Counted from the stretch's first letter, positions 18,452 through 64,000 are shown. The stretch: 64,000 nucleotides of DNA from Prorocentrum cordatum (GCA_963575745.1 CAUYUJ010000002.1:1-64000), one strand, 5' to 3'. The notes: generated by a model from the letters alone, not told the origin. Numbers and translations are program-made.

Positions 18452-18649
18452 GGGGAACAAAAAGTGGAATAAACATCAAAACTCGGAGGTCCGCGCGGAT
18501 TTCTCGGATCGGCGCTGGGGCCCCCTGGCGGCGCCTCCGGCGCCGCCCCTGGCGCGCTCCGCGCGCCAGGGAGGGGGGTCCAGCGCCGATCCGAGAAATC
18601 CGCGCGGACCTCCGAAGAATTTGTCTGTTTATATCATTTCTTGTTCCCC
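18452..18649. mobile_element. Fold-back MITE, TA TSD (copy 2, opposite orientation)
   Basis: Same long TIRs as 12776-12972, with the central segment reverse-complemented; TA|GGGGAACAA...TTGTTCCCC|TA. Confidence 0.9.
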
Positions 18650-40695: not shown

Positions 40696-43049
40696 CTAAG
40701 CATGCATCTCCGTCGCCGTGTTACGCTGCAGCGCAACTGCGCAGCTTCCCCATACGTGATGGCGGATGTGCGCGGCAGCGCAGTGGACAATGCGTTCTCC
40801 CAGCTTGCCAAAAGACTCTTCCAGGAGACGCTCCCTGGCTGCTGCCATGTCCTCCCCGTCCCTTGGCAGCACCTGGGGCAGCTGAAAGGCAGCCTTCGCA
40901 GATCCGCCGCCTGCACTCTCCACGACGGAGACAAGCAGCATCCCGTCCTCGCGGTACAAGCGCAGAGCCGCCTTCGTCACGACGCGGTGCACCTTGACTT
41001 TCGTCCCCGTCATCATGAACAAGCTCTGCCCACTGTCCACCTCCCGCGACAATGAGGCCAGCTGCTCGCTCGTGAGCCGGGCCGGCTTCTCGTGGTCCAG
41101 GGCCTTCATGGCCAGGAGCCCGCTGATGACCCTGGCCTCGCGCGGCATCGCGGACAGGACCTCCGCGTGCTCGAAATGCAGATGGAGGTCCGTGGCGTAC
41201 CTGCTGTTGGCCAGGCACGTGCAGAAGCTCTGCGCGTACGCCCACGACATGGGATGGTTCGGACCGCCCCATCGACGGAGGAGCCCCATCAGCTTGACGG
41301 CCAGGACAGTCATCACCTCGCACGACACCGCCGAGTCCAGCTCGGCGAGGCCGACGTGCCGCCACTGGCACCAGAGCGATGCTTCTGCAAGCCACCTCCC
41401 CTCGCCAACTTCCTCCGCCAGCACCTCGTCCTCGCGAGAATCCCCCCAGGAATAGCACAGGCTGCCGCTCTTGATGAAGTGCATGCCGGCGCCCTCGGTG
41501 CCCGCAAGGAACAAGGTGTCGCCCCTGGTGTGCACGTGGGAATCCGTGCAACTCCGGCACATTTCCTCTGTCATCAGGTCGTCCATCTCGAACATGATGC
41601 GGAAATACACGTGAGGCAGCAAGTAGGGGCGGCAGAGCTCCGTCTGCACCGAGCTCCTCAGAGAGAGAGACAGCAGGTCGAGCGCGCTCACGTCCTTCCA
41701 CTTCAGGGGCTTCTTCCATTTCAGCTTCTCGGTCACCTGCCTCTCCACCTGCATGCAAAGTTCAGGACGGATCTTCTGCGTCTTAAGGAACTGGCGCAGT
41801 GTGACCAGTTGGCTGTTGTTGTGATGCATGTGCATCTTGAACTGCGACACGGTGGAAGAAATCGAAGAGATGAGCGTGGAAAACACCAACATCCCGAATA
41901 TCAATGCAGAGCAATTGTAGATGCGCTCCGAACTGTTCACCGGGAAAACCTGCATCGAACCTGGAGTCATCTGCGTCATCGCCCAATGTAGGCTAGTGGT
42001 GTAGAGGTAGGAGTTGTCAGAGTCACCATACATTTCTCCTTGGTGCCCTCCTGTGGGCTCGTCGAGCCACGTCCTGCCAGTGTCGCTACTATCTCTCATC
42101 ATTCCAATACTGTACCAGCCACAAGCTATCGCGTGGTTAAGCCACAATATTACCACGGCAAACTTCAGGGTGTCCATCAAAACCACCGACGCGGCGTGCA
42201 ATAAGCTCCTTCCCATGGTCAACCGCTCCATGATGCCCGGGATGCTCTTCACCCGTACAACGTTCATACACCTGACAAGCCTGGACAGCTTGACGATGCG
42301 ACCCAATCTGAATGCGTCGGGCTTTGCGCTCGTCGACGTCTGCCAGTGGTAGAAGCCCAAGGAAACGATGTCCATTTTAACGATCAGCAGGTCAAGGAAG
42401 AAGTACCCGAAGAAATAATGTCGGGCGATCTTAACGGGATCCATGAGCAAGGTGCCGTCCTTGTACACTCCGGTGCGGAATGTGAACCCCATGTCGGCGA
42501 TCCAGAAAAGAAGGCTGGCATATGTGAGGTATAGGACCGCCCCTTCCTGCGGCACGTCGAACGCAAGGAGGTACGGCAGCGAGAAGAGGTCGTAGCTGAG
42601 CGCCACCAGGCTGGCCAGGTCGATCGCCAAGCGCAGTGGTGAGATCGGGGCTATCATGCAGCTGCAGCAGCAGGGGGCGTAGAGCATGCTGGCTCTCCGT
42701 ATGCTTGGCAGGTCGAGGCTCATGGCCTCCTCGGCCGACAGGACCCCGCTCCTCTGCGGCACGTCGGCCGCCAGGGCGTCGCACGCCTCCGCCAGCTGCT
42801 CCTGGCTGCTCGCCAGCTCCTCCCGAGGCGTGCACACGCCGAAGTTGAGCATCGAGACCGACCTCGAGGAGATCGCAGCGTTGACGTCGGTGTTGCCGTC
42901 GGGGGTGAACAGGGGCTGCGGGCGGCCCGCGCTCGCCACGCGCGGTGGGCTCGTGGAGGACGTGGGCTCGCTCTTGACGCGCCTGCTGGCGGACCGCCCC
43001 CAGCGCGGAGGCTGCTGCGCCTCGGCGGCCTCCCCGTCGGGCGGCGTGC
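40696..43049 (-). CDS. Cyclic nucleotide-gated / HCN-EAG-like cation channel, exon 2
   Basis: Ion-transport domain (ISPLRLAIDL, FRTGVY, IARHYFFGYFFLDL, S4 RLGRIVKLSRLVR, NHAIACGWY, pore YTTSLHWAMTQMT), C-linker and cNMP-binding fold (GDTLF..G..MHFIKSG). The CCCGAG|G acceptor follows a (CTC)n tract. Confidence 0.9.
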
Positions 43050-43221
43050 CTCGGGGGGACAGGAGGAGGAGGAGGAGGAGGAGGAGGAGGAGGAGGAGGA
43101 GGAGGAGGAGGAGGAGGAGGAGTCCTGACCACAATTTAGATGCGAATCCGGCAGCGGCGGCGAGGGCCTCCCGGGCCCAGAGAGAGACGGCAGCGAGGCA
43201 CCCATTTTCCCCCCTCGTCGA

Positions 43222-43473
43222 GCAGGGGATCGACTGCAGGGTTGGTTTGCCCCAAACTTGACCAGCCCCGTCGAATCCGCAAGAAGTGCGCAGAATGCTC
43301 TCTAGCTTTGGCTTCTTGCTCAGACTACCCCGAAGTTCATGTTCTCCCCCGTCGAATCTACGAAGACTACGCGGAGTGTTCCAGAGGCCTACGTAGCACT
43401 CTGAGCATTCCCTGCAGGCTCTACGGAACGAACCAAGCTTGGGCTTCAGTCAAACCTGTCGTCGACCCCCTGC
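43222..43473. mobile_element. MITE with GCAG...CTGC termini and 4-bp TSD TCGA, in the channel intron
   Basis: TCGA|GCAGGGGATCGACTGCAGGGTTG...CAAACCTGTCGTCGACCCCCTGC|TCGA. Confidence 0.75.
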
Positions 43474-46479: not shown

Positions 46480-49075
46480 ACATCCTCACAAAAATTTGAT
46501 GGTCCAGGCCGTTTCGCTTGAGACATCCTCACAACTCTCGTTTCTGAGTTGGCCGGGATTGGCCGTTTCGCCTGAGACATCCTCGAAAAGTTGCGCTCCG
46601 GGACGCCGCGCGAGAGGTGGTCCGGGCCGTTTCGCTTGAGACATCCTCTGAGCCCCGAGGTGCCGTGCGAGAGGTGGTCTGGGCCGTTTCGCCTGAGACA
46701 TCCTCGAAACTCTGAGCTCTGAGATGCCTTGCGCGAGGTGGTCCGGCCCGTTTCGCCTGAGACATCCTCGAAACTCTAACCTCGGAGATGCCGCGCGAGA
46801 GGTGGTCTGGCCCGTTTCGCCTGAGACATCCGCAAACTTCTGAGCTCTGAGATGCCTTGCGCGAGGTGGTCCGGCCCGTCTCGCCTGAGACATCCTCGCA
46901 ACTCTGAGCTCTGAGATGCCGTGCGCAAGGTGGTCCGGCCTGTGTCGCACAAGACATTCTCGCAACTCTCAGCTCCCAGATGCCGCGCAAGAGGTGGTCC
47001 AGCCTGGGGGCCCAGAAGACCACATGTTACATATCCTCCTTGGGACCCTGGGAGCCCCAGGAGGCCCCAGAGAGCTCCAGGAGGCCGCAGGACGCCCAGG
47101 ACAGGCCCCAGGGGTCTGCAGGAGATTCCCAGGAGGCTCCCAGGAGGCCCCCTATCAGAACGTGTCAAGTTAATCCACATCCGGTGTCGATTCGTTGATT
47201 TTTCCTGCTCTTGTGGCCCCCCCCTTTAATTTGAGGGGCCCAAGCGGCCACAGGTTAGATATCCCCCCTTGGAGACCCAAGAGGCTTCAGGAAGCCCCAG
47301 GTGGGGTCCAGGAGGCCACAGGAGGCCCAGGAGGAAGCCCCAGGAGGTCACCAGGAGGTCCCAGGAGGCACCAGGAGGCCCCCGCAACTCGGAGCTCTGA
47401 GACGCCGCGCTCGAGGTGGTCCGGCCCGTTTCGCCTGAGACTTCCTCGCAGCACGTTTCGCCCAAGACACCGGCCCGTCTCGCCTGAGACATCCTTGCAA
47501 CTCTGAGATGCCCTGCGCGAGGTGGTCCGGCCCGTTTCGCACAAGACATTCTCGCAAATCTGAGCTCCCAGATGCCGCGCAAGAGGTGGTCCAGCCTGGG
47601 GGGCCAGAAGACTACATGTTACACATCCCCCCTGGGACCCTGGGAGCCCCAGGAGGCCCCAGAGAGCTTCAGGAAGCCGCATGACGCCCAGGACAGGCCC
47701 CAGGGGTCCGCAGGAGATTCCCAGGAGGCTCCCAGGAGGCCCCAGGAGGCCCCCTATCAGAAAGTGTCAAGTTAATACAAATCCGGTGTCGATTCGTTGA
47801 TTTTTCCTGCTCTTGTGGCCCTCCCCATTTGGGGGGGCGACGGCCACATGTTAGATATCCCCCTGGGAGCCCCAAGAGGCTTCAGGAAGCCCCAGGTGGG
47901 GTCCAGGAGGCCACAGGGGGCCCAGGAGGAAGCCCCAGGAGGTCACCAGGAGGCCCCAGGAGGCCCCAGGAGGCCCCCGCAACTCGGAGCTCTGAGACGC
48001 CGCGCTCGAGATGGTCCGGCCCGTTTCGCCTGAGACTTCCTCGCAGCACGTTTCGCCCGAGACATCGTCGCAACTCTGGGGTCCGAGATGCCGCGCGCGA
48101 GGTGGTCCAGCCCGTTACGCTGGAGACATCCTCGCAACTCTGGGCTCCGAGATGCCCTGCGCGAGGTGGTCCGGCCCATCTCGCCTGAGACATCCTCGCA
48201 ATTCTGAGCTCTGAGATGCCTTGCGCGAGGTGGTCCGGCCCGTTTCGCCGGAGACTTCCTCGCAGCACATTTCGCCCAACACATCGTCGCAACTCTGGGG
48301 TCCGAGATGCCGCGCGCGAGGTGGTCCAGCCCGTTACGCTGGAGACATCCTCGCAACTCTGGGCTCCGAGATGCCCTGCGCGAGGTGGTCCGGCCCATCT
48401 CGCCTGAGACATCCTCGCAACTCTGAGCTTTGAGATGATGTGCGCAAGGTGGTCCGGCCCGTTTCGCACAAGACATTCTCGCAACTCTGAGCTCTCAGAT
48501 GCTGCGCAAGAGGTGGTCCAGCCTGGAGCCCAGAAGACCACCATGTTACATATCCCCCCTGGGACCCTGGGAGCCCCAGAGAGCTCCAGGAGGCCACAGG
48601 ACGCCCAGGACAGGCCCCAGGGGTCCGCAGGAGATTCCCAGGAGGCCCCAGGAGGCCCCAGGAGGCCCTATCAGAACGTGTCAAGTTAATACAAATCCAG
48701 TGTCGATTCGTTGATTTTTCCTGCTCTTGTGGCCCCCCCATTTGGGGGGGCCCCGACGGCCACATGTTAGATATCCCCCTGGGAGCCCCAAGAGGCTTCA
48801 GGAAGCCCCAGGTGGGGTCCAGGAGGCCACAGGAGGCCCAGGAGGAAGCCCCAGGAGGTCACCAGGAGGTCCCAGGAGGCAGGAGGCCCCCGCAACTCGG
48901 AGCTCTGAGACGCCGCGCTCGAGGTGGTCCGGCCCGTTTCGCCTGAGACTTCCTCGCAGCACGTTTCGCCCGACACATCGTCGCAACTCTGGGGTCCGAA
49001 ATGCCGCGCGCGAGGTGGTCCAGCCCGTTACGCTGGAGACATCCTCGCAACTCTGGGCTCCGAGATGCCGTACGG
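46480..49075. repeat. Composite higher-order satellite
   Basis: ~62-bp GAGGTGGTCCGGCCCGTTTCGCCTGAGACATCCTCGCAACTCTG units alternate with CCAGGAGGCC-rich blocks, each carrying GTGTCAAGTTAAT..TCGATTCGTTGATTTTTCCTGCTCTTGTGGCC (about 47162, 47764, 48678). Confidence 0.95.
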
Positions 49076-49269
49076 GATGAAGAGGAAGTGGAGGAGGAGG
49101 AGGAGGAGGAGGAGGAGACATGTTTTAACATGCCATGCCAGCCCGCACTGGACGGGCACACGATCGACCTTGGAAACCGCAGTGGGTCTAAAAACCCTGT
49201 TTGGGGATACTGCACTGCGGCTATAATTACCTATATAAGCTGCTGAAGGCGGGCCATGTGGAGGCCTTG

Positions 49270-52215
49270 GACGGAGTTCATAATGGCCGCGGCAAAGGTC
49301 GAGGTCATACGCCGGGGTAAATTTGGGCAACCTGGGCCCAAAGCTTACCAGAGGCGGGATCGCGGTCACTGAGGACTATGTGATGTTTGCCCGAATGCAC
49401 ACAAAACCCCCCACGGGCGTTGCACAACTTCGGCAGCGAGATATAAAAACCGCACCCCCTGACCTGGACCCTGGTCCGCTTTCTCGACCTGGCCCCAAAT
49501 CCACACAAAACAAAAACGAGGCTCTGCGACGAGGGGAGAAAGGAGAGTCCCACGAGGGGGGGAGGGACCAAAGAAACGAGGAGGCAGGGTTCTCGAGAAA
49601 GGCGGGAATCCCTTGGCGCTCGCAGGCCCGAGTGACTTTCAAAGAGAAGAGCAGCTGGCTATTCCCTCTAGCGACGGCAGAGGCAGCGCGGCCTTCCAGA
49701 CCCGGAAGACCCCAGAGCGCATATGGCGCTTGGATCCTGCTCCACCTGCTGCCTGGGGGACCGCGCCGGGCCTGGGACCAACTGTTGCAAGGCGTGCCTA
49801 GCCATGCAGCTAACACAACTCCCGAAGAGACCCAGCCGAGAAGGGTTCGCCTGATCACAAGCCGATCCAAATCGAACCAGGGACGAGAAACGAAGACAGC
49901 CGCGATCTCGCCGTAACCCAGATTTTCGACTCCTGGGCTGGGTCCCTTGGATCCAGCAAAAAGTTCAAAGAAAACATGCTCGCGATTTCGGCCGGCACTG
50001 GCCATGGCCGCTCGAAGGAGCGAGCGGAGGCGAGCGGTCACGACGCGGTCGCTCAACAACCACGGGCCTGGGCATCGGGCGCCGGCGGCAGCGCTGGAGG
50101 CGGCGAGATCGCGGCCTCTTCGACGAAGGCGGCGCCGAGCCTCACCGAAACGCGGTTGCCGTAGTCCTCCGCCAACGCGGGGGCACGGGCCAGCTCTGTG
50201 ATTACCATCGTCTGCTTCGCGTGGCGCTTCAGGGTCGAGATTGAGGCCCGGCGCCCGCGGAGCTTCACCTCCCGCGGTGTTCGCAAACGGTGAAGGAGGT
50301 CGAAAGACGCCCGTCCGTGGCGCCATCTGTACGCCGTGATCACCAGGTTCCGAGACAGGACTGACAGGTCGGTCGGCGGAACATGCCAGATGCGGTCCGT
50401 TGTCCTGCGGGCTTGCGCCATCGAGACCTGGAGGCAGAGGCGCAGGAAAGTCAGCGAGCCCAGGGCGACCAGCGCCAGCAGCAGGTCCCGGACGTCGGCG
50501 GCCTCTCCTGCCGCCTCGGCGGGGGCGACCAGCTGGAGCGACATGAGCGAGTCGCACGCGTCGGGCTGACGGTGCGCCGCGAAGAACAGCAGAGCGGCCA
50601 TGGCGACCCCCACGATCGCGGCCAGCAGGACCCACGGCATGGGCACGCGGGCCCTCCGAGGCACCACCCGGCCGCAGCCCAGCAGCGCCTGCGACGTCCA
50701 CGGCGTCGCGCCCGCTCTCCAGCAGCCCGGCTCTGGGTAGAAGAATCCGATGGCGGCGACCAGCTTGCCGGCGACGTCGTTCGCGCACCCCCCGAAGAGC
50801 CGCTTGTCCGGGAAGAGCGCCACGCGGGCGCCCAGCCGCTCGTAACTGCCCCCTGCCAGGCGTGCCGAGGTGACCCAGTGGAGGAAGGTCAACGCCAGGT
50901 GGAGGTCGGCCCTGTCGGTTGCCGGCGCCACCGACCGCCCCGCCAAGGACAGCGCGGCCAAGGTCGAGGGGGCAAAGGGGGGCGGCGGCAGCGGCAGCGC
51001 TGGCGAGCCGCCACTCGCACAGTATATGGGAGCTCGGGTCCGCCCACGTCATGCACGGCCCCTTCCTCGACAAAGGTTGGGAACGGCGGGGCGGCCGGCA
51101 ATGCGTCGGCGACAGCGACGGGAACCGCCGCATCAGCAGGAGGGCCCAGGGCGCCCGCCTTGACCGCGCGATCGATGCACGGGCGACCTCTAGAAGGATA
51201 ATCGGATGGGTTGCGCTCCGAAGGGGCCCATCGCACCGAGAGCCGTGCACCGCGAGCCAACGATAAGGCGCAAATTTCACGAAGCACGTCTCGAATCTGG
51301 AAAGCTCACAAACGCCCCTTGCCGACCGCGAGAGCCAGCCCTAGGTCGTCGACAAAGATGAACAGCCGTCGGTCAAACGCAGACCGGCCTCGCAGCAGAT
51401 GACGAGGCGCCGAAGACAGAGCCAGACCTTCGAGCCGGAGGATGTCGGCATCCGCCCCCCATTGAAAGCTCCGGATCACCTGCCGGCGGCCGGGGCGCAT
51501 GAAGTCGGCGCCCACCGGGTCGAAGGAGCTAGCCTCCGCGCGCGCCTGGAGCAGCCCCGCGGCGAAACCCACCGCGTCGTCCTGCGCGGCGGAGGCGGAT
51601 TCCGAGCGCGCGCCCATGACCGAGACATCTGCCGCCTCTGCCAAGAACGCGCGGTCGCGCGCGGCAGCGGCTCCAGCAGCGCGGCACCTCCTGCGCTCAG
51701 CCACGCGGCCGAAGGCGGCGGCCTCCGCGGGCGCGCAGTGCCTGCGACAGACCCCGACCCCGCAGCCCCAGTGGGAGGCGTCGCTGGCGGCCGCCGCGCA
51801 GTGCCAGCGGGCCCCCGTGTTCGCGACCAGCAGCGGCGACGAACCCATGACGGTGGACAGCTCCTGCCTGACCGACGGCCGCAGAACCGCAGGGCGCCCG
51901 CGGCAGAGCCGCGCGAAGGCGTGGACGGAGGACAGCGCGGACAGGGAGCAGCGCTGGATCAGCATGACCAGCGCCAGGTGGCCGATGAGGATCTCCATGA
52001 CATCGCAACTGCACCGCCCTTTGGCTAAGAGCTCGGCCAGGGCAGCCTTCAGTCGCCAGATGCGCTTGCTCGAGACGCGAACGGTATGGTTGGTGCCGTC
52101 CAGCTCGAGTCCAACGAACTGCACCTGCGTCGAGACGCCCGCCCCCTCGTGCACGACGAATCCCGAGTCAGTGAAAGCGCCGGCCAAGCGCTGGCCTGTG
52201 GAAGCAACTGCCTGA
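49270..52215 (-). mobile_element. Decayed, 5'-truncated DIRS-like retrotransposon B: RT end, RNase H, YR, C5-MTase
   Basis: QFVGLELDG, ASDASHWGCGV, ILRLEGLA, VRWAPSERNPSDYPSR. YR: AYRWRHGRASFD, EVKLRGR. MTase: FELFAG, LGTPCNSWS, FLENPASSFLW, CGFG..RKRT, AQIYP. Confidence 0.9.
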
Positions 52216-52453
52216 AGGCCCTGCGTAGTTAGTAACAGTTAGCGGAACTTCTAATTGTTATGAACGGAGTTATAACTAGTTAGGTTTGGCAAGTTTGAAG
52301 CTGTTTTTTAATGTTTATGTTATGTTTTTGCATCTCATGTAGTTGGAAATTGGGGCATCATGATTGGGCGCTTCGTCGATTTGGATCTGCTCAGGGGCCT
52401 TCAGATGTTTTTTATCGTCCTGGGGCAAACGCGACGGTCCGCAGCGCATCATG

Positions 52454-54536
52454 TTAGCAACATCGCGATTTGTATTCTACTGGCCAAATGCACGTGATGT
52501 CGTTCTCTATTTTCCTGTAAATCACAGGAGCTTTCAGCGAGGTCAGAGGCATCAGAACAGGGTCTGTATCATCTAAAAAGATGTGTCTGGAAAAACCTTC
52601 AGCGGCGTTCACATGCTTAGTTGCAAGCTGCTGGACAAGCACCTGCGACTCGCCATCGTCGCATTTCACGTGAAACCACACTTGCATTGCTGCATGCATC
52701 CCGCCCGACCCCAGAAGTACGATATCACCGCGCTTGATGCGGCCGAAATCTGTCATGGCTTCGATGCTGGAGACGGCTGTCTGCGTCCCAGGGCACATGC
52801 GTTTCAACGCATTCAGCAGCTTCTGTGTTGCTTTCGTTGGGTCGACTAAGCCAGGTGAAACACGCATGGTCTTTAAATCGTGCGCGTGCTGCGCAGTGAG
52901 TTGGACCATGAGAGCCTTCTCTGGCCCCTTCTTGCACATGTGGTCTTTGGCGAAACGTTTTACGTTTTTGTGCTTGCGTTCCTGGACAAAGCAACTGAGC
53001 GACCCATGTTTTTCAAACATTTCTGGCAAATGTGTTGCCATATGGTGCTTATACACCCAATAGCTTTCACCATATGCGTCCTGATGGCACCGAAGATGTT
53101 TCACTATCGCTGACTCTATCTGCGCGGTCGTGACTGGAAGCCGCCGCGCCGCCGTGATGATTATGTCAACGGCATCTTGCAATGCCAGCATACTTGCGAT
53201 CTGGGGGGCCACTTGATCCGATGAAGGATGCATGGCAATTACTTGCCGAATATACCTGCACAAAACAGGCAACGCAGAGATCTCTTCTGAGGCACTTGCT
53301 TGGAGCTCACCAGTCTCCCATACAGTTGCGGCTGAGTGGTGTTTACTCGGCCACGTCCACTTCATGAAATACTCATGCAACTCCATTGCATCACACAAAC
53401 ACTTGAACTGCGCATGCCCTAAAAGTGCTTTTACTTCTCTGTCGAATATACCAGACACAAAATAAATATGCATCCAGTCAAAGCAAATGAATGACGCAGG
53501 GAGATATCGCAAACCTGGGTCCAGCGCTATGTGTTCGGGGTGGAAGTTCCATCCTTTGTGCTGTGTGATGGTCGTGTACTGCCCCTCTGAAAACTCCCCC
53601 CGCTGATATTTATCCCAATCGGGCCGAAGTCGTTCCAGGATCGCGATGATTGTCGCGTCATCGTTTCTGCGTATCTTTGACGCATCCAAGCACGCGTCTG
53701 TCACAAAGAAACCAGATACATCATATGTCAAATAATCAAACTTTCTATTCAAGACGTTGCGACATAACGCACAGGGTTTGGAACCAGCGTGCCCTTTGTT
53801 CATGTGTAGTTCCCGCAATGCCTCTTCGTCCCCTATGACGCACGACAGCTTCGCGACGATCGTCGCGTGCGACGTTGCGTCGCCGTTCTCTGACACGTCT
53901 AATGTAACACCGCTCGTCTCAAAATTGAAACCACCAGCAGAATTAAAAAAAAACTTCTTTGAGGGTCATCTTGATGCACTGCCCGATGCCACCTGGGATG
54001 CTTTTTATTTTTGCGCACCGCGCAGTGCTAAGCGTGAACCACGCATCTTCGTTACCCAAGGACTCGTCGAACTCAGCGAACGACCAGTAAACAGCATCAA
54101 CCCCCCGATAATCTTTCCCCTTCGCCAGGGGGTCTCGCGGTGAAATACCATCGAAATATAAAATGATGTGCCACGGCGACGCCAAGCTGCATGGGTGCTC
54201 CTGAAGTGAGCGGCGAAACATCTCCCTGACTGGAGCGCTAGCCTTGCAGCAGGAATACAAAAATGGCCCAGGACAGCACACCCAGTTCTCGAAAGTTCTA
54301 CCACTGACTAAAGGCGTGTCTATGCAACGCAAGACGTTCCCATATGCGTTCGACTCTTTGGCAATGATGTTTTCGTTTGCCCTGTATTGTGAGCTCCGTG
54401 AAATATTGTCGGGCAACCCATGGTCTCGCACATATTTTAGGACACCCGACAGAGCACGCTGTGACAGGTATGAGCCCCTGTGGAGCTCCACCAGCGCCTC
54501 ATCCGCCTTGCGTTTCCTGGCGGCGGACGCGGCCAT
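52454..54536 (-). CDS. CACTA/CMC (EnSpm/Plavaka-like) DDE transposase, ~693 aa with one frameshift at a T9 run (53945-53953)
   Basis: YFDGISP, VIGDEEAL...HAGSKPCALC, FDWMH...G, YKHHMATHL and SCFVQERKH appear in the order typical of CMC transposases. Removing one T joins ORFs 53943-54536 and 52454-53896 with no stops. Confidence 0.8.
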
Positions 54537-54538
54537 GG

Positions 54539-54560
54539 TTTCAGCCCAAATGGCTACAGA
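54539..54560 (-). promoter_or_regulatory. DinoSL-like motif 2 nt before the transposase ATG
   Basis: AG|TCTGTAGCCATTTGGGCTGAAA CC ATG; 18/22 to DinoSL. Confidence 0.8.
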
Positions 54561-54977
54561 CTCGATAACGATGCCAATGCGCATCATAGGATGCATGCGT
54601 CGCGTTATGGTAGGGGCACGCTGCATGATGCATCTGAATGCAGCGAGGCGATAGATCACAACAGAAGTGCACGTTGCATAACGATGCATATGGCATGATA
54701 CGACGTCGCATCAGAAGGACATGTAGGTGCATAGTGATGCATACGAAGTGCGACGGTAGCTCGCGAGAGAAAGGAGTGTTGCATATTGATGCATGCGACT
54801 TGCGATGAAAAGATCGCAACAGACTTGTGTTTTAGACATCATGGTGCAACGTCATACAAGCAAGAGGGAGTTCGTCGATGTGGCGCCGCCCACCGCCGCG
54901 CTGCAGCTGCGATGCGAGCTCCCAGCCCTGCTGGTCCTCAACAACCCCCTGGTCCTCCCCCTCCCCGCGTCGAGCAC

Positions 54978-56384
54978 CTAACACTTGGCGTCGATCCACG
55001 CCAGCGCCGCGCTCCAAGCCTCAATGCGATTCATCGTCGCATTGCGGTCGAAGCGGACGCGGCGATCTGCCCTCCCCACAACGGCCCTGAACACCTTCTG
55101 TGAAGGCTTGTAGATCACGTAGCCGCACCTGTACGGCGCGTTGCACTCGCACGTCGGCGGCTTGGGCAGCACGGCGGGCTTTGGCACGGCAGCCGCGGGT
55201 CGCCGCATGGCAGGGGGCCGCGCCTTCTTCATTGGCACAGCCCCCTCGGCGTCTTCGACGCCTGCCCCGCCCTCGGCGTCACCGACGCCTTCGCCAGCCG
55301 CGGAGGGGCGCTTCCTCGCCTTGGCGGTCTTGGCCTTCTTGGCGAGGAGCGCCCTGAGCTTCTCCTCCTCGTCGGTCAGGTCTGGCTCGGGCTCAGCATC
55401 GCGCGGCTCATCGCGCGGCTCCTCGCGCGGCGGAAGCTTCGGCTCCTGCTGCGGCTCCTCGCGCGGCGGGAGCTTTGGCTTCGGGGGCTCCAGCTCCACG
55501 CGCGGCTGCGCAGGCGGCTCGGGCGGCCTGAGAGCCGCGGCCGCCGAGTTGGCGAAGAGCGCCGCGCACAGCGGTGCACCGAACAGGGCCTGCATGACTT
55601 GCAACTGCCCGCCAGCCGTAGGGTCTGGGGCTGTCATTGGGGGCGCTGCAGCTGCAGGCGAGGTCTTCGCCGCGCAACGCCTGCTCGACTTCCTCACGTA
55701 GTCTGGCGCGTCCGTCTGGATCTCCTCCAAGGCGGGCCCATCGTCCTTGTAAGCTGATTTCCACCACGGCTCAGCCGACATGTCCTCGATGCGGTCGAAG
55801 TTCCACACCGTGGCGTACCCAAGCGTGGACCAACCCTTGCACGTGATGGCCTTGGAGATGGCACCCTTCACCTCTCCGAGGAGCCTGAGCCAATCGCCCC
55901 CATGCCCCTTGCCGCTGCCCCACGCCACGAGCGCGGCCATCTTGCCCTTGGAGCTCTCGGAGAGCGTGTGGGCGCCGATCAGCTTGCACCGAGCGGCGAC
56001 CAGGCGTATGCACGCCTTCTCACTCAGGTCGCCGCTCTTCAGCGATTTGATCTCGCTCGCCGTGAAGACCCTCGATGCAATGCTAATCTCTTGCCATTGC
56101 TTGGATCCGCCTGGCATTGACAACATGCCTGTCTTGGTCCCGACGCTCTGGCACAAGCGTGCGATGTTCTCTTGAGTCCAAGTGTTCAGCGAGTGCTCCC
56201 TGATTGTTTTCACCAAGGCTGTCGCCTCGTCAGTACTGATCTGTGACAGGTTGTTGATCTTCATGAGGAGGCTGTCGTACTGGTGCTGGGCCACGGCTGA
56301 TGGGCACAGGCCACATGCGATTTGTGTCGATACCCACTCTGACATGTGCTGCAGTTCCGCGCGGAGGTTCGGAACCGTCGTCAT
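54978..56384 (-). CDS. Transposon accessory protein, 468 aa, intact
   Basis: Long non-repetitive ORF with a globular N-half, a Pro/Glu linker, KRPSAA/MRRPAA motifs and a compact C-terminal domain; co-oriented with the transposase. Confidence 0.8.
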   Translation of the reverse strand: MTTVPNLRAELQHMSEWVSTQIACGLCPSAVAQHQYDSLLMKINNLSQISTDEATALVKTIREHSLNTWTQENIARLCQSVGTKTGMLSMPGGSKQWQEISIASRVFTASEIKSLKSGDLSEKACIRLVAARCKLIGAHTLSESSKGKMAALVAWGSGKGHGGDWLRLLGEVKGAISKAITCKGWSTLGYATVWNFDRIEDMSAEPWWKSAYKDDGPALEEIQTDAPDYVRKSSRRCAAKTSPAAAAPPMTAPDPTAGGQLQVMQALFGAPLCAALFANSAAAALRPPEPPAQPRVELEPPKPKLPPREEPQQEPKLPPREEPRDEPRDAEPEPDLTDEEEKLRALLAKKAKTAKARKRPSAAGEGVGDAEGGAGVEDAEGAVPMKKARPPAMRRPAAAVPKPAVLPKPPTCECNAPYRCGYVIYKPSQKVFRAVVGRADRRVRFDRNATMNRIEAWSAALAWIDAKC

Positions 56385-56478
56385 AAGACGACAGTTCCGA
56401 ACCTTCGCGCCTCGCGCCTCGCGATAGGTCGCGCCTCGCGAAAGATCGCGCCTCGCGATAGATCGCGATCGATCGCGA

Positions 56479-56499
56479 TCGAGCCCAAATGGCTATGCG
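56479..56499 (-). promoter_or_regulatory. DinoSL-like motif upstream of the accessory ORF
   Basis: CGCATAGCCATTTGGGCTCGA, about 16/22 to DinoSL, ~95 nt before the ATG. Confidence 0.65.
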
Positions 56500-57422
56500 A
56501 CGCGGGCCTGTGTGATCTATATTCGAAACGGGAACCCGACACCAACTGATGCCAACTTGCAATGCCCCACGCATCGAAGATTGGTTTCGGATGGCAGTGC
56601 GAGTCTACCACCTGCAACGGGTTGCATGCATCTTGGCATACATAGAACCGACGCGTATATGGCGATGTAAGTGTTGCCGCGTCGCGTATCCCCGCCAGCC
56701 CATCCGACTCGAACGAAGAGCGCAGACCACCTGCAGTTGTTATCATCATATGTCTCATCATCATTTTCGTTAAGTGCGCGCGCGCTGATGCCGAGGGGAC
56801 GGTCCAAGACATCACTCACAGAACTGGCGTTCTGGATTTAACCTCACCAGTCGGGAGCATCCCAAAGTCGCGATCCTCCGTATCCTCCTCCTCTTCCGCC
56901 TTATCCTCCTCGTCTTCCCCTCCTCATCCCCCTCCTCCTCCCCGTTGCGGCCTTGGGGCTCTATATGTGGTTCCTATTGGGGTTTTGGTGCTGCGTCATC
57001 CTACAGATATCGTGAGGCGTCGGATGATCCTATGACGCGAAAAAGCGGAAACGCACAGCACCAATGCCATTCAGAGTGCGAAGCAGTTGTGAGGGAGCGA
57101 TGGGGGGGGGGGGCACGGCTTAGTAGCGTAGTAGGATGGGCAAGAGCATCAGCACCAGCAGCAACAGGAGGACAACGACGAGGAGGGACGAAGAGGGAAT
57201 GATGTGATGGGGAGGACGAGGATGGGGATGAGGATGAGGATTGGGAGGGAGGGGGGAGGAGGAGGCGGAGGAGGAAGGAGGAGGAGGAGAAGGGGGAAGA
57301 TGAGGAGGGGGGCGAGGCACCTGCGCTATCATGCCGACATTATCATCCCAGACTCATCTTGCATTGATGCATGCAGGTTTTTTCTCTGACCCCTCCACCC
57401 GTCGTCCGTCGCCCCCGCGCCC

Positions 57423-57859
57423 CTAGCGGGCATCGCGCTCGGCGCGCGCCAGCTCAGTCTCGGCCCGAACGTGGGCCGCGCTCGCATCATCTGCGTCGAG
57501 CAGCGCGTTCATCCACGCGTCCTTGCTCTTCAAAAACGCATTGAACCTCTTCTCTGCCTATCGGGGGGGGAGGGAGGGGGGCGATCGCACGGAGGCGGGT
57601 GGGACTGGCGACACCGATGGGGCCATTGACTAAGGGGGTGGGCTCGAGAGCCCATCCCCTCCCCCCTGGCCTCGAGGGGCCCTTGTGTTGTTGTTAGTTA
57701 ACAACCGCCTGCCTTCTTCTCAGCCTGCGTCTTCGCTGCTTTGGCATGCTTCAATGCCGCCTTGGCAGTCTTCACTGACCGCTGGCGTTCCTGCTTTTCA
57801 TCCTGCAGCTCAAAGCGCACCTGCGCTTCCATCGCGATCGTCTTCGCTGATTTTCCCAT
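57423..57859 (-). CDS. Two-exon 93-aa helical protein of unknown function (exons 57859-57713, 57557-57423)
   Basis: MGKSAK...TQAEKK|AEKRFNAFLKSKDAWMNALLDADD...ERDAR*, with AAG|GC donor and TAG|G acceptor in phase 0. Confidence 0.6.
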
Positions 57860-58096
57860 GGACACGTGAACCACAAATGGGGACGCGTAAGCCACGCGTG
57901 AACTGGTTCGCAAAGGTGGGCGAATGAACCACAAATGCTGCTGACGGTTTGCCAAACGTTCAGCCCCGCCATCGTTGGCGACATGTAGTAAGCTGGGGGG
58001 GGGGGGGGCGCGAGAGGTGTGAACAGGAGAGGGGTCGAGATGAGGAGGCGGCTGGGGGTGGACATGCAACGGGAGTGCCCGATCACGGCGTCGATG

Positions 58097-58137
<41 letters not shown>

Positions 58138-58300
58138 GGGGGGGGGGGGTATGAGTAGGGCAGTGATGTGTGGTCACATGGTTGGCACTCATGCCATGCG
58201 ACCGCGTCGCAGACTACATGCGTTTTCACGCAGCCGAGTTGGTTGAGGGCTGAGAGAACGCAGCTTGTAAGCTGCGGCGCGCGCGCGTGTGTACGCGACT

Positions 58301-59056
58301 ATGCCTGCCATGTCAGCCGACTTGAAGGCGCTGCGTGCCAAGCACCGCAAGGAGGACACGGAGCACTTCAATGAACGGTTGGGTACCCTGATCAGGCACA
58401 AGCAGCATTGCCCGAAGATGTCCAAAACGGCGGACCGCAAGGCAGCCAGTATCTCATGCATGACATGTTGCAAGTGGTTGCAATCCATTCACGTCGAACT
58501 ATACTTGCTGATTAGAGCATAAACGGTTGGGCATCACCCGATGCAGTTGTATGCATGTTCGGTTGTGTTGAAACGCATTGCAATCGGCTGCGAGTAGTTC
58601 GCGTCGAAGGGCGCACTTGTGACACTAGGGGGGGGGGGGGGGGGCGTTGAGGCAGCGCCCAATGCAGTCGTATGCATGCGCGTTCGGTTGCGTTGACACG
58701 CAGGTATGTACTATCATGATGTCAGGGTGTGAAATTGGTTGTGTAATGGCTTGGCGTTGCGACTGTGGTCGCATGGTCTCAAGCGGCTGGGCGAACGGTC
58801 GCACTTAGCAACGGCGTGTCAACGCCACGTCTGAACCCCGTCCATGCCCACTCGAAAGGCAGACGCTGCATACAAGAAGATGGAGAAGCTCGTGAAGAAG
58901 GCGGAGCAGGCCGCGGATTCGTTCACGTTGCTCTTGGACAACGCCAAGATGTGTAAGGGTGCGGTTGATCGGGCGAATAATCGCCTTGTGGAGGCAGGTG
59001 CTGCCGATCGTGCGCGGGGGCGCAAAGCCTTGGGTATCGGTGAATACGCCGCCTGA
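58301..59056 (+). CDS. Two-exon 112-aa helical protein of unknown function (exons 58301-58441, 58859-59056)
   Basis: MPAMSADLKALR...KTADRK|ADAAYKKMEKLVKKAEQ...GEYAA*, with AAG|GC donor and AAG|G acceptor in phase 0. Confidence 0.55.
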
Positions 59057-60215
59057 GTGTGGGTGTCGGGGCGTACTTAGATGGGGGCTCGTTGGGGTTG
59101 TGCGTGCAAACGCATGTATGCGAGCCTTCAGGTTCTCGTTGCAGCTTTTCGCGCGATAAAGCACCCTGCGGAGAGACCGATGATACGAATACGAATGAGG
59201 ACGAGGAGAAATAAGAATAGGATGAGGAGGGTTAGGCGGTGGAGGTGAATGAGACGGAGAAGGAGGATGATGGGGGTGAGAATGGTGAGGAGGGATAGGG
59301 AGGAGGAGAAGGAGGACGAGGATGAGGAGAAGGGGGAGGGCGAGCAGGAGAGGAGGAGCAGGATGAGACGCCCCCGCCGTCGTCTCCGCCGCCGTCGAAC
59401 TCGTCGCAGCCAACTCGTCGCCACCAACTCTTCGCCGTCGCCGTCGCTATCGCAGCCGCCATGGCAATTACTCCTCCTCATCTTCTTCCCCCTCCTCCTT
59501 CTCCTTCTCCTCCTCCCCATCGTCCCCCTCTTCCTCCGCGTGCTCCTTGTCCTGCTCCTCCTCATGCTCCTCCTCCTACTCCTCCTCATCCTCGTTGTCG
59601 TTCAATCGTGGTCGTCACGGTGGCCGCCGCCCTCCCCTGCACCGCGCGCGCAGATGACGGCGCAGGCGACGGCTTCGACGGCGACGGCGGGAACGAGGAG
59701 GAGACATGCTGAGAATGAAGAGGGCGAGAATGAGACGGAGTAAGAATGAGGAGAATGAGGATGATGAGGAGGAGAATGAGGATAAGGAAGAGGAGGCAGA
59801 GGAGGAGGAGGAGGTGGGGGAAGATGAGGAGGGTGATGAGGCGGAGGAGAAGGAGGAGGAGGAGGAGGCGGCGGCGGCGGAGGAGGAGGCGGAGGAGGAT
59901 AAAGGTAGGAGGGGGAGGGTGAGGATGAGGGGGAGGATGGGCCTTCCCCTCCTCCTCCTCCTCCTCACCCCCCACCTCCTCCTCAGAATCTTCCCCCCTC
60001 TCCTTCTCCTTGTCATCCTTCTCCCGCGCATCCTCCTCTCATCCCACTTCCCCTTATTCTCGCTCACGCCACGCTCATACACCTCTTATCAACATGATCC
60101 AGCGCAGCCGCGGGCAGCGCAGCCAAGCAGACGAGCCCATTCTAGGCACAACGTCGACCACGAGCGAGATGGAGACCCTCGAAGTTTACTCTAAACATGA
60201 GCCCAAACCCTTGGT

Positions 60216-60475
60216 GTCGTATGTCAGAATCTCACATGCGACAAATCTGTCGTATGTCAGAATCTTACATACGACAACGTTGTCGTATGTAAGAATCGTA
60301 CATACGACATCTCGCTCTTATATATCATAAGGATTATATTAACACATCCGTCGTATGTTAGAATCTTACATACGACAACGGTGTCGTATGTAAGAATCTT
60401 ACATACGACAACTTTGTCGCATGTTAGAATCTTACATACGACAACTGCGTCGTATGTTAGAATCTTACATACGAC
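60216..60475. repeat. Array of seven 27-bp palindromes, 33-bp period
   Basis: GTCGTATGTAAG-AAT-CTTACATACGAC at 60216, 60249, 60282, 60350, 60383, 60416 and 60449. Confidence 0.95.
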
Positions 60476-60697
60476 GACCCCCACCATAATAGATCATCCC
60501 CGACGGAGGAGAGGCAGCGCGCGGTCTAGAATGGACTCCACGCCTGCTGCCGCGCTGGTGGCGGCACATTAATGCAGCAGCGGCGGCTTCGGCGCCGCTT
60601 TGGTAGTGATTCTGGCGCTACTGCAGATCAGCGGCGAACAGCCGCCTCCGCCCAGATGTCGGGAGGAGGAACACATTACATATCCAGTTCTTGGCCC

Positions 60698-61984
60698 TCA
60701 TCCTCCCCCCTCGTCCGTGGTAAGAACCGTTGAAGGAGGAGGGATGAGGGGGCCCGATAGAACTAGATCTGTATTGTTTTCCTCCACCCAGATGCGCCAG
60801 TGCGTCCGCTTGCTCCACCTGACGTAGTCGGCCTTGCCGCGGTCCGACATCAGGTCCTGCAGCCCGTCCAGCTGCTCCTTGGTGGCAAGGGCCTTCGCCA
60901 GCCTGATGTGGCGCCCGCCGCGGGACTTCTCCTCGCGCCAGCCCTTGCCGCCGTCGTAGCCTTTATCGCCCTTGCCGCCGTCGTGGCCCTTGCCACTGTC
61001 GATGCCCTTGCCACTGTCGTAGCCTGTATCGCCACGGTCGTAGCTTGGATCACCGCCGTAGCCCGTGTCACCGTCGTAGCCCTTGCCGACGTCGTAGCCC
61101 TTGCGATCATAGCCCTTGTCGCCCTTGCGATCGTAGCCCTTGTCGCCCTTGCGGTCGTAGTCACGGCTGTCGTAGCCACAGTTGCCGTAGTTGTCGTAGC
61201 CACGGTTGTCGTCGCCACTGCTGTCGTATCCGCGGTTGTCGTAGCCACGGTTGTTGTAACCACGGTTGTCGTAGCCACGCTGGTAGTTGCCACTCTTGTC
61301 GTAGCCCTTGCTGTCGTAGCCTCTGTTGTCGTAGCCCTTGCTGTCGTAGCCCTTGCTCGAGCCCTTGTCGTAGTCGCCCCAGCGCCTGCGGTCGTACCAC
61401 CTGTTGTCGTAGTCATCGTTGTCGCGGTCGTACCACGAGCTGGGGTGGTCATACCACTTGGAGCTGTACGGGTCGTAGCGGCGGTCGTAGCCCTTGTCGC
61501 CCTTGCCACCGTCGTAGCCCACGTCGCCCCTGTCACCGTGGTAGCCTTTGTCGCGGCCCTTGTCGATGTCGTAGCCTTCGCCGCTGCCCTTGCCATCGTC
61601 GTGGCCCTTGTCGAAGCCCTTGCTCGAGCTGCCTTTGCCACCGCCGTAGCCCTTGCCACCGTCGATGATGCCCTTGCCACCGTCGTAGCTGGCGTAGTCG
61701 TAGCCCGTGTCGTCGCCATCGCCGTCGTCCATGAACTCCTGCAGGCCCTGGAACGAGTTCAACTCGGGATCCAGCGCGGGCGCCAACTCGAGATCATCGA
61801 GCAAGCCGTCGGCCACGCGCGAGCGATCGTACTTCGCCAAGACCTTCGCCGTCGGCGGCGTGCTTGGCGGCCGAGGGGCCACCTTGCTGGTGGGCTGCAA
61901 GACCTTGGCGGCCGCGGCGCGCCGCCGCTGGCTGAGATCCTCCGCCGCCTCCAGGAGCAGCGTCACCGCGGTCTCGTCCGCCAT
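60698..61984 (-). CDS. Gly/Tyr/Asp/Lys-repeat protein 1 (~428 aa)
   Basis: Open frame from MADETAV with many KGYD/RGYD/GGKG repeats and non-repetitive ends. A DinoSL-like motif lies at 62190-62210. Confidence 0.65.
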   Translation of the reverse strand: MADETAVTLLLEAAEDLSQRRRAAAAKVLQPTSKVAPRPPSTPPTAKVLAKYDRSRVADGLLDDLELAPALDPELNSFQGLQEFMDDGDGDDTGYDYASYDGGKGIIDGGKGYGGGKGSSSKGFDKGHDDGKGSGEGYDIDKGRDKGYHGDRGDVGYDGGKGDKGYDRRYDPYSSKWYDHPSSWYDRDNDDYDNRWYDRRRWGDYDKGSSKGYDSKGYDNRGYDSKGYDKSGNYQRGYDNRGYNNRGYDNRGYDSSGDDNRGYDNYGNCGYDSRDYDRKGDKGYDRKGDKGYDRKGYDVGKGYDGDTGYGGDPSYDRGDTGYDSGKGIDSGKGHDGGKGDKGYDGGKGWREEKSRGGRHIRLAKALATKEQLDGLQDLMSDRGKADYVRWSKRTHWRIWVEENNTDLVLSGPLIPPPSTVLTTDEGGG

Positions 61985-62632
61985 GGTGCTGCTGGTTGCA
62001 CTGGTGATGCTGCTGCGGGTGGTGCTGCTGGTTGCACTGGTGGCGATGCTGCAGCTGGTGCTGCTGCGCGTGGAGCTGCTGGATGCACTGGTGGTGCTGA
62101 TGCAGCTGGTGCTGCTGCGCGCGGAGCGCTGGTAGCTGCTGCGCGTGGGGCGCTGCAGCTGGTCGCGCACTGTCGCGACCCGAGCAACGCTCGGGCCTAA
62201 ACGGCGGTGGCAACGGAGGATGATGAGGTCGGGAAGGGATATTCACATCATAGCGTAGCATTGCATGGCATACCATAACCAACATCATGGTTCGCGGTAC
62301 TGAGTTCATTGTGAGGTCGTGTGATGCTGAGTTAATTGTGAGGCTGTCTCGAGCGAACGCAGACGACGATGCTAACGCATCTCATTTTCAAGTTCACATC
62401 CCCAAGTAAACTCTGACACAACGCATGCATTGCTGCATGCACCCATGAGTGCACAGCGCGAAACGATTCGCGACGCAGCCACGCCCCCTCACCCGAATCG
62501 CCCCCTCACCTGAATCGCACCCCCCCCCCCCTCCCCCCATTTGCGCGCGCTGCTGTTTCTGGACCGAGGCCCCCTGGAGGACCCCTTTCTCCTCCCAGGG
62601 GGGCGTGGCCGCGCGCGGTGGCGCGCGCGGCC

Positions 62633-62802
62633 ATGGCGTGCAGCGCCGAGGCGCTGAGCCGCGAGGCGCGCCTACACGAGGACTGCTGGGGTGAGAGCCA
62701 CAGGAGAAGGATGAAGGGGGATGAGGAGGACGAGGAGGAATACGAGGATGATGAGGAGGAAGAGGAGGAGGAGAAGGAATAGGAGGAGGAGGAGGATGAG
62801 GA

Positions 62803-62833
<31 letters not shown>

Positions 62834-63884
62834 GAGGAGGGAGGTCGGCGGATTTTCGCCCTCCATACAGGAGCTCCAGCGGGAGCGGCGGATCACAGAC
62901 AGGCTCCTCGACATCACAGACATCCTGCTTGGCTACGACAACAATGGCTACGACAACAGTGGCTACGACAACGGCTACGACAAGGGCTACGACAGAGGCC
63001 ACGACAAGGGCTACGACAAAGGCTACGACAAGGGCTACGACACGGGCTACGACAGTGATGGCAAGGGCTACGACGACGGTGGCAAGGGTTACGACGATGG
63101 CAAGGGCAAGGGCTACGACGGTGGCAAGGGCAAGGGCTACGACAGTGGCAAGGGCCGCGAGAATGACGGCAGCGGCAAGGGCCGCGACAAAGACGGCGAC
63201 AGCGGCAAGGGCCACATCAGGCTGGCGAAGGAGCAGCGTGACGGGCTGCAGGACATGATGTCGGACAGCGGCAAAGGCTACGACGGCGGCAAGGGCAGCG
63301 ACGGCGGCAAAGGCTACGACGGCAGCAAGGGCTTCGACAAAGGCTACGACGGCGGCAAGGGCAGCGACAAAGGCTACGACCCGTACGGCAGCTCGAGCAA
63401 GGGCTACGACGCGGTCTACGACACGGGCTACGTCAATGGCTACGACAAGGGCTACGACAAGGGCTACGAAAAGGGCTACGACGATGGCAAGGGTGCTGAT
63501 GGCATCGGTCGCGGCTGTACAAGCTACGACGGTGGCACGGGCATCGACGACGAGGCCATGGGCTACTACGACGGTGGCAAGGGCTACGATGGTAGCAAGG
63601 GCAGCACCGACGGTGACAAGGTCTACGACGGTGGCCAGGGCTACGACGATGGCGAGGGCTACAACGGTGGCAAGAGCATTAACGACGGTGGTAAGGGCAA
63701 GGCGACGGCCCTCGACAGCGGCGGGGGCTACGATGACGGCAAGGGCCCCGACGAGGGCAAGGGCATGAGCATGGGCAGGGACGCCGATGTGCCGAACAGC
63801 GGCATGCGCGACGATGGCCCTCCGCATCTTGAGCTGAGTTCTGTTACTGAGTCCCCGCCGCCAGCGGGGCCAGATTCGGACTGA
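62633..63884 (+). CDS. Gly/Tyr/Asp/Lys-repeat protein 2 (predicted exons 62633-62665, 62871-63884)
   Basis: MACSAEALSRE|ELQRERRITDRLLD.. with GAG|GC donor and CAG|G acceptor, then KGYD repeats. It shares HIRLAK..EQ.DGLQD.MSD.GK with protein 1. Confidence 0.6.
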
Positions 63885-64000
63885 GCACGCGAGGCAACAA
63901 TAGAATAGAGATTGGAGGGAGAGGGAAGGGGAGGTGGGAAGGCGAAGAGGGAGTGGAGCTACTGGAAGCTAAGCGTCGTCTGGCGCATCTCCCGTCGGCG

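Follow-up and report, generated by a model that had tools for sequence, protein, structure and literature searches.

The stretch of DNA analysed here (the window) comprises 64,000 nt of Prorocentrum cordatum (GCA_963575745.1 CAUYUJ010000002.1:1-64000), repeat-laden eukaryotic DNA with a GC content of 0.61, and all coordinates refer to it. The region from 52209 to at least 56384 is very probably a single young copy of a DNA transposon of the cut-and-paste type, which has two genes, belongs to the CMCT clade and has its left end at about 52209. This degree of confidence applies to the two-gene core, the clade and the left end and not to the extent of the element. The transposon is nested in an older retroelement. 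Judged from its sequence, the copy is young, because it carries a lone frameshift and because a companion protein differing from its own at 1 of 468 residues exists elsewhere. DNA transposons of the CMCT clade that have inserted into retroelements are a known kind; what looks new is the combination of a large lineage lacking a Pfam family, a BAH-like domain on the transposase, an AP2-like partner and termini that are not of the CA type. A literature search returned no description of this lineage, and related families may sit in Repbase or in the supplements of PMC12730594.

An earlier note on this DNA had united six genes in a single element of more than 11.6 kb. The core formed by the transposase and its companion is upheld by our analysis; the cargo part is not supported, as it rests on two absences, that of a right end and that of the other half of the reverse transcriptase (RT).

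The transposase

To the right of 52.2 kb the GC content falls to 0.445 (52209–52453) and 0.51 (transposase gene), compared with 0.68 in the left flank, and three long minus-strand frames of 503, 255 and 504 codons are found, counted from stop to stop. The 503- and 255-codon frames make up one transposase gene for a protein of about 693 aa, with its start at 54536 and its stop at 52454. The N-terminal 197 codons (53946–54536, minus strand, MAASAARKRK...) include the first putative catalytic aspartate in YFDGISPRD, and the C-terminal 503-codon frame (52454–53965, minus strand) includes the second aspartate, C(2)C, DxxH, H(3)H, the putative catalytic glutamate and the BAH-like domain. Three-frame reading places the shift, by one base, in a T9 homopolymer (53945–53953, minus strand).

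The protein database yielded 15 transposase homologues, mostly of about 660–730 aa, the best being an intact protein of 693 aa (P0001), residues 12–195 of which correspond to 54503–53952 and residues 193–693 to 53959–52457 at 91% identity; for the N-terminal frame, BLASTP gave 169 identical residues out of 186. The description of the transposase as near-intact is therefore confirmed, the T9 run being the site of the sole frame change. A 672-nt contig from one sequencing run (X1) matches 53839–54510 with 0 differences and 0 gaps, so the frameshift is not peculiar to this assembly, unless X1 is the source sample.

The family is large. Among the representatives of clusters formed at 50% identity, a profile built from ten members retrieved 8507 with E≤1e-3, of which 1978 reached E≤1e-30, and there are several near-identical and 70–91% identical paralogous clusters with up to 73 members. 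Sequencing runs that contain 52100–62000 are chiefly marine metagenomes. A viral origin was considered and rejected. For relatives, viral_contigs gave 15 pattern matches with 0 confirmed; contigs of prokaryote genomes gave 2 pattern matches for relatives, with 0 confirmed.

The AlphaFold model of P0001, the protein that supplies the residue numbering used here, has a mean predicted local distance difference test score (pLDDT) of 70.9. Foldseek against the PDB returned 45 matches at E≤0.001, the best to 6oeo_C (E 3.3e-7), and those listed are RAG1, BbRAGL (the RAG-like transposase of amphioxus) and HzTransib (the Helicoverpa Transib). VIA-align superposed model residues 40–565 on residues 483–1008 of RAG1 (6oem_A, Z 12.3, root-mean-square deviation (rmsd) 5.7, 443 aligned), with Z 10.9 for BbRAGL and Z 8.9 for HzTransib. 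RNase H-like cores that the model resembles include those of RAG1, Transib, Hermes, the P element and retroviral integrases. Residues 560–684 match more than 10 BAH domains, such as DNMT1 BAH1 (7lmk_A, Z 9.0, rmsd 2.6, 97 aligned), ZMET2 (Z 9.0), ORC1 (Z 8.1) and TNRC18 (Z 7.9), and by its modelled fold this part is a BAH-like domain, for which Pfam gave no match.

Seven residues (D129, D236, C255, H356, H498, H502 and E519) are invariant in all 55 members compared, which are 24–69% identical, and C258 and D353 are conserved in at least 90% of them. The resulting spacing of catalytic and zinc positions, D-107-D-19-CxxC...HxxxH-17-E, can be set beside that of mouse RAG1, for which catalytic D600, D708 and E962 and a zinc site of C727, C730, H937 and H942 are given in PMC4914335, and which works out as D-108-D-19-CxxC...HxxxxH-20-E. 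In the account of PMC12730594 the CMCT clade comprises EnSpm/CACTA, Mirage, Chapaev, Transib, Plavaka, ESTA as well as Lanisha, and its signature is D..D..C(2)C..H(3)H..E. The transposase has a DDE/DDD triad on an RNase H-like fold (D129, D236, E519) with C(2)C and H(3)H located between D236 and E519, and it therefore fits this clade. The earlier note had named the CMC superfamily, which holds at the level of the wider clade by signature and fold, but not at that of any Pfam CMC family, none being found in 79 members or in the ORFs (open reading frames) of the window. Likewise, hmmscan detected no profile similarity to Transposase_21, Plavaka or DUF1258, by which CMC in the strict sense would be recognised; these three are the named neighbours in the ESM Atlas at 0.91–0.93, which we treat as a lead only.

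The companion gene

The companion gene (54978–56384, minus strand) is open throughout, in agreement with the intact 468-aa accessory ORF of the earlier note. Its closest homologue, P0016, is the protein with the single differing residue mentioned above, and a second, P0017, is 76% identical and belongs to a cluster of 43 members. We compared 26 metagenome loci, namely those encoding transposases that are 25–43% identical. A related ORF lies directly upstream of the transposase and on the same strand in 8 of these 26, and a companion-type ORF is present in all 5 loci that have more than 2 kb of upstream sequence. The window companion together with P0017 aligned by hhalign to the partner ORFs of the 8 loci with a probability of 98.5% (E 3.6e-15, 209 columns). 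The accessory ORF is thus a conserved transposase partner, and its C-terminal end is AP2-like.

The protein consists of a helical N-domain (1–190), a disordered Pro/Ala/Lys-rich linker with RPAA motifs, and a C-domain (411–468). In the model the C-domain has four strands (415–418, 421–426, 431–436, 439–444) and a helix (453–467) at pLDDT 76–90, and 55 of its 58 residues align to the AP2 domain of PfSIP2 of P. falciparum (6sy0_A, Z 6.8, rmsd 2.2). As modelled, the C-terminus has the AP2-type fold, for which a three-stranded sheet on a C-terminal helix, in about 60 residues, is the criterion. Pfam AP2 is not matched by the companion sequence; with the whole companion, Foldseek against the PDB gave no match at E≤0.001 and the ESM Atlas gave no usable match. 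For the N-domain, just unspecific structural matches to helical bundles were obtained, and a complex prediction of transposase residues 40–693 with companion residues 1–225 had a score of 0.00 and permits no verdict.

The companions of three loci (L007, L013 and L019, out of 10 in alignment A4) end in a Cys-rich GC.xCR[YF]...GC..C sequence that is not AP2-like. This suggests that the putative DNA-binding module was swapped within the companion family.

The left end and a complete relative

One locus, L013, is a complete element of 8.3 kb with a transposase of 25% identity. Its inverted repeats of 53 bp (1057–1109 and 9333–9385) are 90.6% alike and enclose 3.5 kb of other sequence, followed by the companion and then the transposase. 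Its flanks permit a duplication of CC (2 bp), or of TA if TA is outside the terminal inverted repeat (TIR); a 5-bp duplication was not seen. The upstream 3.5 kb of L013 include ORFs of 175 and 118 aa, and its transposase gene has a probable intron or frame break at 7415–7554.

We place the left end of the window copy at about 52209 (TGCCTGAAGGCCC...) because the termini of L013, L001 and L021/L023 are alike, an assignment made by comparing sequences. Nowhere in the window, on either strand, does the transposase-side arm of L013 match better than at 52209–52260 (score 34, the next being 28), and this score was reached by 1 of 2000 shuffles. In L001, similar sequence occurs about 405–455 nt past the transposase stop (13/2000 shuffles). 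L021 and L023, which are two copies of one relative, cease to be similar at ...CCATCCAAGTA, and the terminal CCAAGTA is that of L013; here the comparison of L021 with the L013 terminus gave 4/2000 shuffles, and that of L023 with the window terminus, a weaker pair, 35/2000. A weak hint in the same direction is a contig of run X3 that starts at 52211 with 2 loose letters. The terminal letters are TGCCTGAAGG in the window, TACTTGGAG on both arms of L013, and TACTTGGATGG in L021 and L023.

The terminus and subterminal region (TGCCTGAAGGCCCTGCGTAGTTAGTAACAGTTAG..., 52209–52453) contain a cluster of AGTTAG, with 3 of the window's 7 plus-strand copies at 52227, 52237 and 52278 (within 52227–52283). 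That an AT-rich end follows the retroelement is borne out by the low GC content of this region. Its proposed start at a CCC at 52219 is not, as the L013-type end matches ten bases further to the left and 52219–52221 are internal; nor are the ends of the window copy, L013 or L021/L023 of the CAC or CCC type.

Several observations weigh against the assignment of this copy to a CMCT transposon with a conserved partner and a left end at about 52209. With respect to the transposase, the confidence of the P0001 model is low around E519, the profile, run against the sequences in the PDB, picks up neither RAG1 nor Transib, no Pfam family, CMC included, is found for the ORFs of the window, and Pfam, run at E up to 5 on the ten A1 members and at E up to 0.05 on 69 more relatives, gave 0 matches for these 79. 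The catalytic roles of D129, D236 and E519 are inferred, and it is from the models that we propose that the AP2-like domain would bind DNA and the BAH-like domain would read chromatin. The companion model has a low mean pLDDT of 64.0, and a companion was not found in 18 of the 26 loci, including L001 and L002, the closest loci fetched, and L005, where 1.4 kb are available upstream. With respect to the ends, L013 is the only complete relative with both TIRs, the comparisons of the window with L021 (220/2000 shuffles) and with the left, companion-side arm of L013 (1091/2000) are not significant, and no target-site duplication can be read in the window, where one end is present. The terminus is TGCCTG (TACTTG in L013 and L021) rather than 5'-CA..TG-3'. 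According to PMC12730594, 5'-CA..TG-3' is the form in most cases in the clade, with target duplications of 2–5 bp.

We also considered that the genes might not be mobile here, either because the host has domesticated them or because the block containing the pair belongs to a segmental or tandem duplication. BAH-like and AP2-like domains are typically found in proteins of chromatin and transcription, and the transposase of the window copy is frameshifted, both of which would suit such genes. This explanation is nevertheless very improbable given the thousands of clusters and the near-identical paralogous clusters described above, the invariance of the catalytic residues, the 53-bp TIRs that flank the pair in L013, and the loss of similarity in L021 and L023 exactly at the common terminal motif. 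In the window itself, the left edge of the block coincides with the terminal motif and cuts a coding frame.

The interrupted retroelement

The coding frame that is cut belongs to a 5'-truncated retroelement-like coding region (49379–52208, minus strand), which was delimited by translation, by BLASTP and tblastx to a second copy, and by motifs recognised by eye. A minus-strand frame at 51309–52238 loses homology at about 52209–52215; its residues 22–137 align with 24645–25244 of the second copy (BLASTP E 1e-7, 26% identity), and collinear tblastx matches of the flank continue down to 21.7 kb (21.7–24.4 kb). The coding sequence of the second copy runs on upstream, while that of the flank copy stops at the transposon end. 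Judging by motifs, the order in the flank appears to be RT thumb, RNase H and then a 654-aa frame, with the cut about 10 residues after the expected YxDD box. Thus the abrupt stop of retroelement coding at about 52215, as claimed in the earlier note, is real when measured against the second copy, and its missing 5' part indeed does not reappear in 52200–64000, where tblastx with the other copy gave non-collinear, low-complexity matches. The label DIRS given to this retroelement, which would call for RT/RNase H plus a tyrosine recombinase, is without tool support: Pfam searches of the flank ORFs found 0 families at E up to 10, with no RT, RNase H or methylase among the results, and a PDB sequence search of a flank ORF found nothing relevant.

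The second copy (21700–25525, minus strand) is diverged, with about 26–30% protein identity, and is more decayed, with several frame breaks. The 654-codon frame of the flank (49379–51340, minus strand) holds FELFAGSKG, GTPCNSWS and LENPAS, strings that, read by eye, resemble motifs of a cytosine-5 DNA methyltransferase.

The extent of the element

To the right of the companion gene, 56385–60214 is either interior of the transposon or host DNA, and it contains short ORFs, arrays and homopolymers, with (GGA/CCT)n arrays, G/C homopolymers and (GT)18 at 56.9–60.1 kb. The short predicted ORFs (52–73 aa) are located at 57703–57861 (minus strand), 58301–58522 (plus strand) and 58844–59056 (plus strand). 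At 60215–60475 a palindromic unit of 33 bp (GTCGTATGT..ACATACGAC) is repeated about 8 times in tandem, with GC 0.375 in a neighbourhood of 0.6. Beyond it are two predicted ORFs, both putative cargo: GYD1 (428 aa, 60698–61984, minus strand), which has (K/R)GYD repeats, and GYD2 (387 aa, 62721–63884, plus strand), which is similar to GYD1. They form an inverted, diverged duplicate pair with a host-like GC content of 0.63–0.65. Of the two head-to-head gene pairs described earlier, the GYD pair stands, its genes being open, divergent and mutually similar, and the small pair does not, consisting of ORFs of 52–73 aa without homology. GYD1 has 17 homologues, the best at 41% identity and none near-identical, and neither GYD1 nor GYD2 has a match in Pfam.

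A second transposon end was sought in 56385–64000, and neither the inverted terminus (...GGGCCTTCAGGCA) nor a mirror cluster of the subterminal motif was found. Searching the window with 52151–52460 by blastn-short gave 10–12-mers only; Smith-Waterman alignment of the reverse-complemented end gave a score of 20 against a background of 26; the pattern GCCCN{3,8}GTTRGTA has a single site, which is the left end; TACYAAC has no site to the right of 52.2 kb; and an ungapped scan with the terminal 20-mer gave at most 12/20, equal to background. The earlier note had looked to a right TIR before 57.4 kb as the finding that would speak against a large element, and none was found there or up to 64000. 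A 9-mer, GCCTTCAGG, at 59124–59132, which agrees with the terminal motif, was considered as a right end and rejected as a chance occurrence, as its surroundings are unlike the terminus and no RT resumes behind it.

These absences can be read in two ways. The transposon may extend from 52209 to beyond 64000 (>11.8 kb), having captured the small ORFs and the GYD pair and being moved in trans, a reading that we hold tentatively and would sooner doubt than accept. A distant right end predicts that neither an inverted terminus with its mirror cluster would be found in 56385–64000 nor the 5' part of the retroelement resume up to 64000, as is the case; both of these main arguments are absences. The other reading, to which we would give not far from an even chance, is that of a one-ended or rearranged copy, in which a later deletion or rearrangement took away both the end on the companion side and the remainder of the retroelement, and in which the sequence to the right of about 56.9–60.5 kb, with the GYD genes, is host DNA. 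Here a single event accounts for both absences, at the cost of requiring an extra event in a nearly undecayed copy, and no breakpoint can be identified. Young DNA transposon copies usually retain both ends, which we count in favour of an element extending beyond 64000. We count likewise the gene capture documented for the CMCT clade in PMC12730594, that of TET/JBP genes in fungi.

Size and composition favour the loss of an end. The sole complete relative has a length of 8.3 kb, with 3.5 kb upstream of the companion, and an element of about 8 kb, as in L013, puts the lost end at about 57–60.5 kb, a section packed with unstable simple repeats and homopolymers. To the right of 56.9 kb the composition is host-like: the GYD genes and 56.9–60.1 kb have GC 0.60–0.65 and (GGA/CCT)n like the surrounding genome, not the 0.45–0.51 of the transposon. 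The older relative L021 is also without a recognisable upstream TIR, within 5 kb.

As to whether the right-hand genes travel with the core, none of the 26 loci has a homologue of the GYD genes or of the small ORFs, a count limited by only L013 and L021 extending beyond 3 kb on the upstream side of the partner. Tblastn of the companion, the small ORFs and the GYD proteins against these loci gave no match, and tblastx of their upstream regions gave noise alone, with no GYD or small-ORF homologue. Homologues of GYD with up to 41% identity occur on other contigs of up to 35.7 kb, in line with host genes. GYD1 has no near-identical database protein, whereas both core genes have one, a point against capture that is weakened by short-read contigs breaking in the repeats of GYD1.

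The mapped sequencing runs point in the other direction. In all four, chosen for containing 52100–62000, contigs match the core and the GYD part alike, at a few differences per piece, and 7 of the 20 runs in which any of this stretch occurs contain 67–78% of the sampled words of 52100–62000, beyond what the two core genes alone would give, which make up about 43% of that stretch. Runs with the core thus also contain the right-hand part, which speaks for one large element and against host DNA at the right; against this, no contig listed bridges core and GYD genes. Three further observations from these runs were not used as evidence. The flank at 49268–52102 is almost uncovered (bin means 0–7) and 52103–64000 is covered in four runs; depths of contigs are similar in the core and the GYD part, for example 25.4, 26.9 and 25.2 against 26.1, 27.1 and 24.4 in run X3, contig depth not being copy number; and contig joints at 56945/59569 and 58645/62518 were disregarded, as they lie in simple repeats and homopolymers. 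The cover would suit a unit present in more copies than its left flank, but a gap in cover is no proof, and the choice of runs favours 52100–62000.

The small ORFs and the GYD genes are, in sum, candidate cargo. The full proposition, that the pair represents an undescribed, very large RAG1-fold CMCT lineage of marine protists, with a BAH-type chromatin reader on the enzyme and an AP2-type DNA-binding partner, and that the window copy is longer than 11.8 kb, contains the captured GYD pair and small genes and is moved in trans because of its frameshifted transposase, seems to us doubtful when taken as a whole.

Comparison with known systems

The lineage has in common with the CMCT clade its signature of catalytic and zinc-site residues and an element length of several kb, with capacity for extra genes. 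It differs in lacking a Pfam CMC match at the level of HMMER, in its termini (TRCYTG... and not 5'-CA..TG-3'), and in the C-terminal BAH-like domain and the AP2-like partner, neither of which was found described for those lineages in the literature search.

Transposons of the Transib/RAG1 type are defined by termini resembling recombination signal sequences, CACWRTG, and by a 5-bp target duplication. Transib proper was rejected, as there are no CACWRTG-like termini and no 5-bp duplication at L013. RAG1, Transib and ProtoRAG (BbRAGL) are the best structural matches of the transposase, with near-identical D-D-CxxC spacing, but there is no match at the level of sequence and no CACAGTG-like terminus, and an AP2-like companion stands in place of the RAG2-like partner. 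The modelled resemblance to the RAG1 fold may be common to the whole clade; no CMC-type transposase structure is among the matches.

ESTA elements of fungi, which have TA target duplications, are described in PMC12730594 as having transposases linked to RAG1 only by sensitive profile comparison. By this description the present lineage can be set beside them, as its own link to RAG1 comes by fold search only, and the ends of L013, L021 and L023 are readable as TA + CTTGG...CCAAG + TA. The TA may equally belong to the inverted repeat, however, the window has TG in its place, and the hosts differ, being fungi in one case and a marine protist in the other.

The En/Spm (CACTA) element encodes TnpA and TnpD, the accessory protein binding repeated subterminal motifs. 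By analogy, the transposon described here may be similarly organised, with a transposase, a second element-encoded protein and repeated subterminal motifs (the AGTTAG cluster). It differs in that the two proteins are encoded by separate genes and are not alternative splice products, and in that no similarity of the companion to anything named could be detected.

Other features of the window

Pfam gave no relevant family among the 88 long ORFs of the window nor among the six proposed genes, and Rfam and tRNA scans of 47000–64000 found nothing. A 129-nt internally palindromic, GC-rich sequence is present as two inverted copies, at 12846–12974 and 18450–18578, which are separated by 5.5 kb and show 96% complementarity; from this arrangement, the two copies may mark the ends of another mobile element, and the ORFs between them have no Pfam match. 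A satellite with a period of 64 bp (families D8 and D11) is located at 46559–49077, and very many contigs of the four mapped runs match it. A 917-codon frame at 40699–43449 (minus strand) has a weak match to PF00027, cyclic-nucleotide binding (E 6.5e-4, 20.1 bits, with a cut-off of 27.5), and may be a host gene.

Proposed mechanism and significance

We envisage that the transposase would pair both ends and cut and rejoin DNA in the manner of RAG1 and Transib, that the companion would bind the subterminal AGTTAG/TTAGTA repeats via its AP2-like domain, and that the BAH-like domain might steer the transposase to chromatin. The frameshifted window copy would move only in trans, with enzyme supplied by intact relatives of 91% identity.

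If the small ORFs and the GYD pair are cargo, the locus would be a case in which a CMCT element has captured several genes in a host that is neither plant nor fungus; if they are not, it is an ordinary nested insertion.

Transib-like transposases are the ancestors of RAG1, the builder of antibody genes. Transib transposases recovered in one survey numbered only 35 (10.1101/2021.09.26.461848). The family described here abounds in marine sequence data and escapes Pfam, and it would widen the known range of the RAG1 architecture, with intact natural enzymes of RAG1-like architecture on offer for study. In apicomplexans and plants AP2 is the chief domain of transcription factors, and a connection of AP2 with mobile elements has long been made; a transposon with an AP2-like gene beside its transposase would be a concrete vehicle for the spread of AP2.

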